Shown here piece by piece: positions 22,381 to 22,463 of a DNA stretch of 64,000 bases; position 1 is the stretch's first letter; the number at the start of each line of letters is the position of its first letter. Made by a program: the position numbers and the translations under genes. The notes under the pieces were generated by a model. The model was not told the origin of the DNA, ran no database searches, and was given only the letters and a program-made list of their open reading frames with translations. The stretch lies in the sequence record NC_023693.1; one strand, written 5' to 3'. This DNA comes from Escherichia phage phi92.

Positions 22381-22463
22381 AGCCGGGTAGATTTAAAAGA
22401 GTATGGTACTCAATATGGCTCCAAACCATAGATCAGGGGGTTCGATTCCTCACCTTGCTGCCA
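22381..22463 (+). ncRNA. non-canonical tRNA-like element with Trp-type (CCA) anticodon hairpin
   Basis: anticodon hairpin TATGG-CTCCAAA-CCATA, T-loop TTCGATT, CCA end; 5' half about 7 nt too long for a canonical D-arm. Confidence 0.4.

Follow-up and report, generated by a model that had tools for sequence, protein, structure and literature searches.

Escherichia phage phi92 carries a cluster of tRNA genes, and here we describe an 83-nt tRNA-like element in this cluster, at positions 22381-22463 on the + strand. The window analyzed is a stretch of 64,000 nucleotides from this phage (sequence record NC_023693.1), and all phi92 coordinates are positions in it. Judged from comparison of sequences, the element belongs to a real, conserved and unannotated family of non-canonical phage tRNA-Trp(CCA) genes, which combine an acceptor/T branch of 8 and 4 bp (8/4) with a new helix between the connector and the variable loop.

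The Element and Its Gene Cluster

The tRNA gene cluster occupies the region 19500-22700 and is 97-98% identical to that of the approximately 145-kb phAPEC8-like E. coli myophages (ESCO9, arall, and muut; Stephanstirmvirinae). Its tRNAs, 15 according to ARAGORN and 14 according to Rfam, lie on the + strand between 19625 and 22544, and nearly all of them have an encoded CCA end. Upstream of the element, a tRNA-Met gene ends at a distance of 58 nt; downstream, tRNA-Ile starts after 5 nt, at 22469. Neither ARAGORN with default settings nor Rfam at the gathering score makes a call at 22381-22463. In a permissive Rfam search the top match is tRNA-Sec (RF01852) with 22.4 bits against a threshold of 47, the general tRNA model scoring lower still. 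ARAGORN with lowered thresholds reports a tRNA-Trp(cca), at that with another, poorly paired acceptor starting at 22386. We rejected this acceptor (GGTAG/CTGCC-type), as it fails in the homologues (alignment checked by eye) and the pairing of AGCCGGG covaries.

A first-pass annotation of the sequence had noticed here a hairpin TATGG-CTCCAAA-CCATA, a T-loop TTCGATT, a CCA end, and AGCCGGG as the best 5' acceptor partner, with a D region too long for a tRNA. All these parts are in place. The hairpin is found at 22414-22430, the T-loop at 22441-22447, and G followed by CCA at 22460-22463; AGCCGGG is at 22381-22387, and its pairing is backed by covariation (3:70 C-G to G-C; 6:67 G-C to A-U). Compared with a standard tRNA, 8-9 additional nucleotides separate the acceptor from the anticodon stem. 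The acceptor can be refined to 8 bp, with T22388 paired to A22452 and a T stem of 4 bp. This 8/4 arrangement, the conserved family, and the structured state of the extra nucleotides go beyond the earlier description; the latter take part in the structure, as pairs form between three of them and the variable loop. The parts of the element are as follows, all on the + strand (counts are among the 17 family members described below).

22381-22388, +: 5' strand of the acceptor stem, AGCCGGGT, 8 nt, pairs with 22452-22459
22389, +: A9, a lone connector nucleotide, A in 17/17 and unconstrained by the search patterns
22390-22392, +: 5' strand of helix P, GAT, the first three nucleotides of the insertion, pairs with 22432-22434
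22393-22398, +: conserved single-stranded linker TTAAAA (consensus UUWAAN), the rest of the insertion
22399-22411, +: D-like hairpin, 5-bp stem GAGTA/TACTC with a TGG triloop (G18G19 equivalent), supported by covariation
22412-22413, +: two-nucleotide joint AA; A22413 stands opposite G22431 as a 26:44-like non-Watson-Crick pair
22414-22430, +: anticodon arm, 5-bp TATGG/CCATA with the 7-nt loop CTCCAAA; anticodon CCA at 22421-22423, reads UGG
22431, +: position-44-like G, partner of 22413
22432-22434, +: 3' strand of helix P, ATC, in the would-be variable loop, pairs with 22390-22392
22435-22436, +: unpaired A and G leading into the T stem; all 17 members have A at the first position, 12 have A and 5 have G at the second
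22437-22451, +: T arm, 4-bp GGGG/CCTC with the loop TTCGATT, which fits the T-Psi-C-R-A consensus
22452-22459, +: 3' strand of the acceptor stem, ACCTTGCT, supported by covariation
22460-22463, +: discriminator G73 and encoded CCA; G in 17/17, full CCA in 12/17, unconstrained by the search patterns

A Conserved Family in Phages

A BLAST search with a 93-base query region finds copies of the element in 61 phage records, and in none of these 61 GenBank records is a tRNA annotated at the element. In a few of them a short "hypothetical protein" covers it; in phage Nernie, the sole record examined in this respect, this gene is on the opposite strand. Diverged copies with 75-80% BLAST identity are present in Klebsiella phages (KP13-26 and others) and Citrobacter phage Tr1, and further ones in a second subfamily, Ounavirinae, in the Hafnia phages SarahDanielle and Zyzzx and in "Listeria" phage LPML1. 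In Ounavirinae, only three close relatives align across the interval from tRNA-Ser to tRNA-Thr. A sequence pattern derived from the alignment yielded additional members in IMG/VR (L014) and in metagenomes (L015-L027), and a relaxed pattern gave one more, L047, on a 1.7-kb contig of a peat-soil metagenome-assembled genome (MAG); this contig has tRNAs as well and probably represents phage DNA that was binned into the MAG. The strict pattern has no matches in 185,579 bacterial and archaeal species genomes. The carriers are phage-like, as seen from a baseplate protein, HNH endonucleases among the tRNAs, and the IMG/VR classification. Overall, the family numbers 17 distinct homologues, drawn from two phage subfamilies, from metagenomes, and from the single MAG contig, and all of them share one architecture. 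Each locus has exactly one member, and the insertion has a constant length, with a deviation of one nucleotide in L021, L022, and L047.

A covariance model, R1, was built from 13 members. The members score 72-98 bits on it, versus 39.7 bits for the best canonical tRNA-Trp and approximately 36 bits or less for other tRNAs. The window copy scores 97.1 bits (E approximately 3e-27) with boundaries at exactly 22381-22463, and canonical tRNAs do not exceed 40 bits. This scoring had been suggested in the first-pass annotation, and no standard tRNA with other boundaries emerged from it. Scanning IMG/VR with a wildcard anticodon brought up no members that differ in the anticodon, only an insertion-less 8/4 tRNA with CUA. 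Three candidate loci were rejected as members, one being a canonical tRNA-Trp (L012) and the others chance or canonical matches (L013 and L009). Default ARAGORN calls none of the 17 full-length members, the Rfam model RF00005 (gathering score 29) gives a single marginal partial match of 29.8 bits among 14 family loci, and Rfam has no family for the rewired Trp element.

All family copies are on the same strand as the surrounding tRNA cluster and only 0-11 nt away from the adjoining tRNAs, which suggests that the ends of the element coincide with tRNA processing sites. The neighbors are simply other tRNAs, and no protein gene is conserved beside the element. A canonical tRNA-Trp is absent from all 17 family loci; in phage Nernie, all 15 annotated tRNAs (0001-0015) are in this cluster, and none of them is a tRNA-Trp.

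Some of these records call for comment. The SarahDanielle element corresponds to 1504-1586 of locus L004 (MW749010, 57961-58043), and exactly there the locus tags skip from SARAHDANIELLE_93 to _95, so a feature may once have been called at the element and later dropped. Four "Campylobacter phage" records (MG065639, MG065645, MG065656, and MG065689) are approximately 98% identical to the E. coli phAPEC8-like phages over the tRNA cluster, and "Listeria phage LPML1" (OK283618, L005) is a member of Ounavirinae, being 94% identical to the Hafnia phages in a 276-base segment of the tRNA cluster. The host labels of these five records look doubtful.

Covariation Support for the Fold

The structure was first drawn by eye and then tested on an ungapped alignment of 13 distinct sequences (A3). 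A second, model-based alignment of the 17 members (A5), with three gapped columns, replaces a MAFFT alignment with L021 and L022 in which the gap fell in the acceptor stem. Since A5 is aligned to the model, it leans slightly to the structure; the ungapped A3 gives the same result. For the whole structure in 17 sequences, 96.9% of the cells are paired, compared with 64.4% in shuffled alignments. Compensatory changes occur at 21 of 25 pairs, and none of 500 shuffles reaches any of these measures.

The acceptor pairs, columns 1-8 with 72-79, are 94% paired in A3, and seven of the eight show compensatory changes. All five pairs are compensatory both in the D-like stem (97% paired) and in the anticodon stem (100% paired), while the T-stem columns 57-60 with 68-71 are 98% paired. 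Column pair 8:72 is paired in all 13 sequences of A3 and in all 17 of A5, with four pair types. A 7/5 acceptor/T model requires a fifth T-stem pair, 56:72, which fails to form in 10 of 13 sequences; we therefore rejected this model and conclude that the branch consists of 8 + 4 bp. RNAalifold independently predicts the 8/4 stems and adds a sixth D-stem pair, 18:32, which is formed in most members (CG 7, GC 5, UA 2). The loops are conserved as well: CUCCAAA in 17 of 17 members, the UGG triloop of the D-like hairpin, and TTCGA in the T-loop with one exception, TTCAA in L047. In the linker, T14, A17, and A18 (A5 numbering) are invariant, partly because the search pattern forces them, yet they are common to the BLAST-found homologues.

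Helix P, which involves the inserted nucleotides themselves, is paired in 50 of 51 cells of A5, and all three of its pairs have changed on both sides, pair 11:53 through all the combinations CG (5), UA (5), GC (4), and AU (3). The variants observed are GAT/ATC, AGT/ACT, GGT/ACC, GTT/AAC, GCT/AGC, and GAG/CTC. Taken alone, the helix is 97.4% paired, versus 72.9 +/- 5.0% in shuffled alignments (none of 500 reaches this value) and 5-49% when the partner columns are slid. The same is seen at short evolutionary distance: between the Hafnia and LPML1 copies, which have approximately 91% identity in a stretch of 101 bases, one pair of P has changed on both sides (U-A to C-G), and so has one pair of the D stem. 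Neither the P columns nor A9, G73, and A1:U72 were ever constrained by the search patterns. From this comparative evidence, the structure as described here, with the 8/4 branch, the D-like hairpin, and helix P, is very likely correct.

Proposed Core Topology

Positions 10-12 of the element pair with the variable loop, and the D-like hairpin forms a separate branch, so that two three-way junctions result. At column pair 33:51, where G.U is observed in 11, A.C in 3, and A.G in 3 sequences, the 5' side is always a purine, and this pair behaves like the 26:44 pair of ordinary tRNAs. The 3' strand is therefore uninterrupted from the anticodon stem through this pair to P, and hence P would take the normal place of the D stem in the anticodon-side stack. 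The 5' strand is interrupted by the linker UUWAA(N) and by the D-like hairpin ending in UGG. From these strand connections, we expect that P, the 26:44-like purine.N pair, and the anticodon stem would stack continuously, with P filling the D-stem place by means of a second strand that comes from the variable loop. The D-like hairpin would be a side branch able to present the G18G19 equivalent of its conserved UGG triloop to the T-loop.

Among the features of elongator tRNAs, the element has the 12-bp acceptor/T branch and an anticodon arm with U33, a purine at 37, and the anticodon CCA; it has no canonical D stem formed by 10-13 and 22-25, and its branches do not meet in one four-way junction. 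We tentatively propose that it could be a natural translation-competent tRNA with a new core, in which P stands in the D-stem place, the function of the D-loop resides in a separate hairpin, and two three-way junctions are stacked; the chances of this part of the interpretation we consider somewhat below even.

Probable Function as tRNA-Trp

The Trp type ascribed earlier to the anticodon arm agrees with the whole family, since the anticodon CCA and the loop CTCCAAA are identical in all 17 members. The discriminator is likewise G73 in 17 of 17, A1:U72 is present in 16 of 17, and the pair 5:68 is G.U, not G-C, in 13 of 17. Two published accounts (PMC12135181; PMC9976931) deal with the parts of the tRNA that the E. 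coli tryptophanyl-tRNA synthetase (TrpRS) reads. In the excerpts used here, recognition involves all three anticodon bases, G73, and the backbone along acceptor pairs one to five; A1:U72 and G5:C68 serve as minor identity elements, and the description of the TrpRS-tRNA co-crystal includes no D-arm contact. Thus the features conserved in the family appear to be the ones needed by the translation machinery and TrpRS. The 3' half of the element aligns by BLAST with annotated canonical tRNA-Trp genes of T4-like Klebsiella phages. When the 9-10 inserted nucleotides are deleted in silico, default ARAGORN recognizes a tRNA-Trp(cca) in 13 or 15 of the 17 members, against none before, which favors the reading of the element as a tRNA with an insertion, one of three that had been offered at first. 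Furthermore, 8/4 tRNAs occur in phage tRNA clusters, and 8/4 as well as 9/3 tRNAs translate efficiently in E. coli (PMC5389517). From these sequence features we conclude that the element is probably a working phage tRNA-Trp(CCA) that decodes UGG and the only tRNA-Trp of the phage.

The following sequence of events can be proposed. No promoter of its own was reported by the promoter scan for the window copy; a perfect TTGACA hexamer is located at 22362-22367, 14 nt upstream of the element, and an acceptable -10 hexamer is absent there. The first strong terminator downstream is at 22936-22960. Given this context, the element would be transcribed within a polycistronic tRNA unit and released by RNase P and 3' processing in the same way as the neighboring tRNAs. 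Charging by the host TrpRS is proposed because the anticodon, G73, and the acceptor end that the enzyme reads are all conserved; the charged molecule would then be delivered to the ribosome and read UGG. More speculatively, the rewired core might help the phage tRNA to escape host factors that act on the host tRNA-Trp.

A number of points weigh against this interpretation. The canonical D stem and the four-way junction are absent, the correct L-shape is assumed, and no known translating tRNA has such a topology. Helix P has only 3 bp and is not predicted by thermodynamic folding; the minimum free energy of the single sequence has z = 0.24, a measure that hardly discriminates at tRNA size. The window copy has a C.T mismatch at acceptor pair 4:76 and lacks the sixth D-stem pair (A.A). 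That UUU.AA, UGG, CUCCAAA, and GGUUCGA do not vary is in part a matter of construction, since a pattern requiring these motifs was used to retrieve the metagenomic members. This bias is partly offset by the BLAST-found members, which share the motifs, by the wildcard-anticodon scan, and by the relaxed scan that gave L047. Finally, a canonical tRNA-Trp is often missing from phage tRNA sets, and its absence from the family loci is for that reason weak evidence.

Alternative Explanations

The most serious alternative is a tRNA-shaped RNA that is processed, and perhaps charged, but does not decode. Such an RNA might serve as a decoy or sponge that occupies a host factor binding or cleaving tRNA-Trp (for example an anticodon nuclease, a toxin, or TrpRS itself), or else as a regulatory RNA. 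The core topology has no precedent in translating tRNAs, some irregular 8/4 tRNAs are charged but unused in translation, or inactive (PMC5389517), and the anticodon loop is the most conserved part of the element, as a nuclease decoy would require. However, bait for an anticodon nuclease would not need G73, A1:U72, the 12-bp branch, the T-loop, and UGG all together, and all of these are kept under compensatory evolution. Moreover, no canonical tRNA-Trp stands beside the element in any locus, and its only constant companions are other tRNAs, with no conserved protein gene. A non-translating mimic of tRNA, which was another of the initial readings, thus seems less likely on comparative grounds, and we regard a decoy or regulatory role as unlikely, although it deserves more weight than the explanations that follow.

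Another candidate mechanism derives from analogy. Changes in the D arm of tRNA-Trp alter decoding fidelity, the E. coli Hirsh suppressor being the D-arm mutation G24A in tRNA-Trp, and the remodeled D region of the element, which is radically different, might by the same logic relax decoding, so that CCA would also read UGA and stop codons would be read through. Against this, 60 long open reading frames (ORFs) of the window stop at TAA in 46 cases, TAG in 7, and TGA in 7, and the open frame after TGA has a median of 4 codons and a maximum of 20, with no read-through candidates; as these counts cover the window only, they are a weak test. We consider such suppression improbable.

Still less probable, and to be given very little credence, is a post-transcriptional removal of the 8-9-nt insertion as an intervening sequence, leaving a plain 8/4 tRNA-Trp. 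In its favor, the product of the in silico deletion is accepted by ARAGORN, and an insertion-less 8/4 chassis does exist in the CUA-anticodon tRNAs of other phage contigs. But three of the inserted bases covary with the variable loop, which is sensible only if they are present in the folded RNA, and excision is unlikely for this reason; nor do we know of any bacterial or phage pathway for cutting such a short segment from the D region. The remaining initial reading, a degenerate copy, that is a decaying tRNA-Trp pseudogene with a random insertion, would explain the lack of calls by default ARAGORN and Rfam and the acceptor mismatch of the window copy, but it is excluded, to near certainty, by covariation, as compensatory changes are found in all five helices, that of the insertion included, and architecture and insertion length (+/-1 nt) stay the same across both phage subfamilies, the varied metagenomes, and the MAG contig.

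Comparison with Known tRNAs

Taking the element as a tRNA-Trp gene, its closest published relatives are the (8/4) tRNAs described by Mukai et al. (2017, NAR 45:2776, PMC5389517). Both the element and these tRNAs have an 8-bp acceptor and a 4-bp T stem, which add up to 12 bp, and a long D stem capped by a minimal loop; both occur in phage tRNA clusters, and both are missed or misread by standard finders. The D stem of our family has 5-6 bp and a 3-nt loop, whereas the published class has a tetraloop. The published examples include tRNA-Ser and tRNA-His in phage clusters, the allo-tRNAs, and the selC* tRNA-Cys; the class as given in that paper comprises Ser, His, Cys, and Sec, with no mention of Trp, and no helix between a 5' insertion and the variable loop is described. 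Allo-tRNAs differ further in having a long variable arm and Ser identity, whereas the element has a 5-6-nt variable region paired to the insertion and Trp identity. The "E-loop" and "five-stem-junction" variants from soil Acidobacteria, several of them inactive (PMC5389517), are the nearest published oddities, compared here by description only. By its sequence, the element would be best classed among the non-canonical 8/4 tRNAs, as a new Trp member.

The canonical tRNA-Trp(CCA) of Klebsiella phage Mineola (MH333064, L011 272-346) has the same CUCCAAA loop, G73, CCA, T-loop, and A1:U72-type end, and its 3' half is approximately 81% identical to the element by BLAST. It differs in being a 75-nt 7/5 cloverleaf with an ordinary D arm, and it is the canonical gene that scores 39.7 bits on R1. 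With tRNA-Sec (RF01852), the best permissive Rfam match, the element shares an extended acceptor and a long D stem with a tiny loop (PMC7609411); the differences are the UCA anticodon, 13-bp branch, and long variable arm of tRNA-Sec as opposed to CCA, 12 bp, and no variable arm in the element.

The same chassis, with an 8-bp acceptor, A9, a 6-bp D stem with UGG, and a 4-bp T stem, is found in 75-nt tRNAs with the anticodon CUA from IMG/VR contigs of up to 171 kb:

L030, 3787-3861: CUA-anticodon, amber-suppressor-like tRNA
L040, 1203-1277: CUA-anticodon, amber-suppressor-like tRNA
L036, 2345-2419: CUA-anticodon, amber-suppressor-like tRNA
L042, 1924-1998, - strand: CUA-anticodon, amber-suppressor-like tRNA
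L035, 4750-4824, - strand: CUA-anticodon, amber-suppressor-like tRNA
L032, 1091-1165, - strand: CUA-anticodon, amber-suppressor-like tRNA

Neither the 8-9-nt insertion nor helix P is present in these genes, whose R1 scores are 40-46 bits. The existence of such an insertion-less chassis suggests that an 8/4 chassis was the origin of the Trp family, and that the insertion was acquired together with the complementarity to the variable loop.

Full-text searches of the literature gave no description of the rewired fold, and none of a tRNA-Trp from these phages. In a review on non-canonical tRNAs (PMC7609411), neither phages nor such a helix are mentioned, and a preprint on phage TrpRS/tRNA-Trp(UCA) pairs (PMC12636597) proved unrelated.

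Significance

If the proposed function is true, dozens of phages of E. coli, Klebsiella, Citrobacter, Serratia, and Hafnia, some of them therapy candidates, carry a tRNA-Trp that is absent from annotations, and, consequently, counts of phage tRNA repertoires and arguments based on codon usage are incomplete. For annotation of the family, the covariance model R1, or else the simple sequence pattern, is ready for use. The fold would widen the structural range of tRNAs, since a connector/variable-loop helix that replaces the D stem is undescribed in the literature searched, and it would provide a compact natural test of what the ribosome, EF-Tu, RNase P, and TrpRS need of the tRNA core, and possibly an orthogonal scaffold for genetic-code engineering. 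Should the topology also be as proposed, there would be a fundamentally different way of building the L-shape, and the altered body may evade host tRNA-targeting factors or shift the kinetics or fidelity of decoding. E. coli has a single tRNA-Trp gene, and thus a phage copy with a different body would, if real, be a candidate counter-measure to tRNA-directed host defenses.

Other Observations in the Cluster and in Related Contigs

The cluster contains another unusual gene, a tRNA-Arg(UCU)-like element at 19874-19952. Like the Trp element, it is a conserved phage tRNA-like gene with a rearranged D/variable core, and the two co-occur in Stephanstirmvirinae. Its topology is different: the acceptor has 7 bp, the anticodon loop CUUCUAA (UCU, Arg) follows only approximately 7 nt after it, there is no D arm and thus no D hairpin before the anticodon arm, and an invariant segment of 23 nt, CGUUAAYCGAGUAANUGGAGUAU, lies between the anticodon and T arms. 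Covariation is seen in the acceptor and anticodon stems, whereas the core does not vary. The gene reaches 38.6 bits with the Rfam tRNA model, above the threshold, and is annotated as tRNA-OTHER or Undet, or not at all. Copies with at least 80% coverage are present in 239 phage records from five lineages, namely Stephanstirmvirinae, Felixounavirus, the jumbo phage SHEFM2K, Vequintavirinae, and Demerecviridae, a much wider spread than that of the Trp element. Directly upstream of it, at 19834-19862, there is a near-consensus sigma-70 promoter-like site, TTGACA-17-TATAGT with a TG extension; similar TTGACA sites are located at 19974 and 21282, ahead of tRNA-Ser and tRNA-Gly.

Two further tRNAs of the window depart from the standard form. 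The tRNA-Met at 22244-22322 has 79 nt, with the anticodon at position 37, a long 5' half, and a modest Rfam score of 48.9 bits. The tRNA-Lys(UUU) at 20508-20583 is reported by ARAGORN as "tRNA-???" with a two-base anticodon "tt", and the best stem pairing gives a 6-nt loop CUUUUA; it is possibly one of those anticodon-loop variants for which evasion of anticodon nucleases has been proposed.

Two metagenomic contigs with family members contain other RNA-related features. In L016, a 73-kb phage-like contig, a match to the cyclic di-GMP-I riboswitch with 50.3 bits (gathering score 35) stands just upstream of a 341-amino-acid ORF, and a 493-amino-acid ORF matches PHROG 850, "RNA-binding protein", with E = 1.8e-126 (regions 2660-2741 and 4933-6414). 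In L018 (1051-1132 and 820-892), an 82-nt stretch beside the member scores 67.9 bits on the Rfam model of transfer-messenger RNA and so exceeds the gathering score of 47, despite being much shorter than such an RNA, and a weak tRNA match of 36.4 bits, with no ARAGORN call, follows directly after the member.

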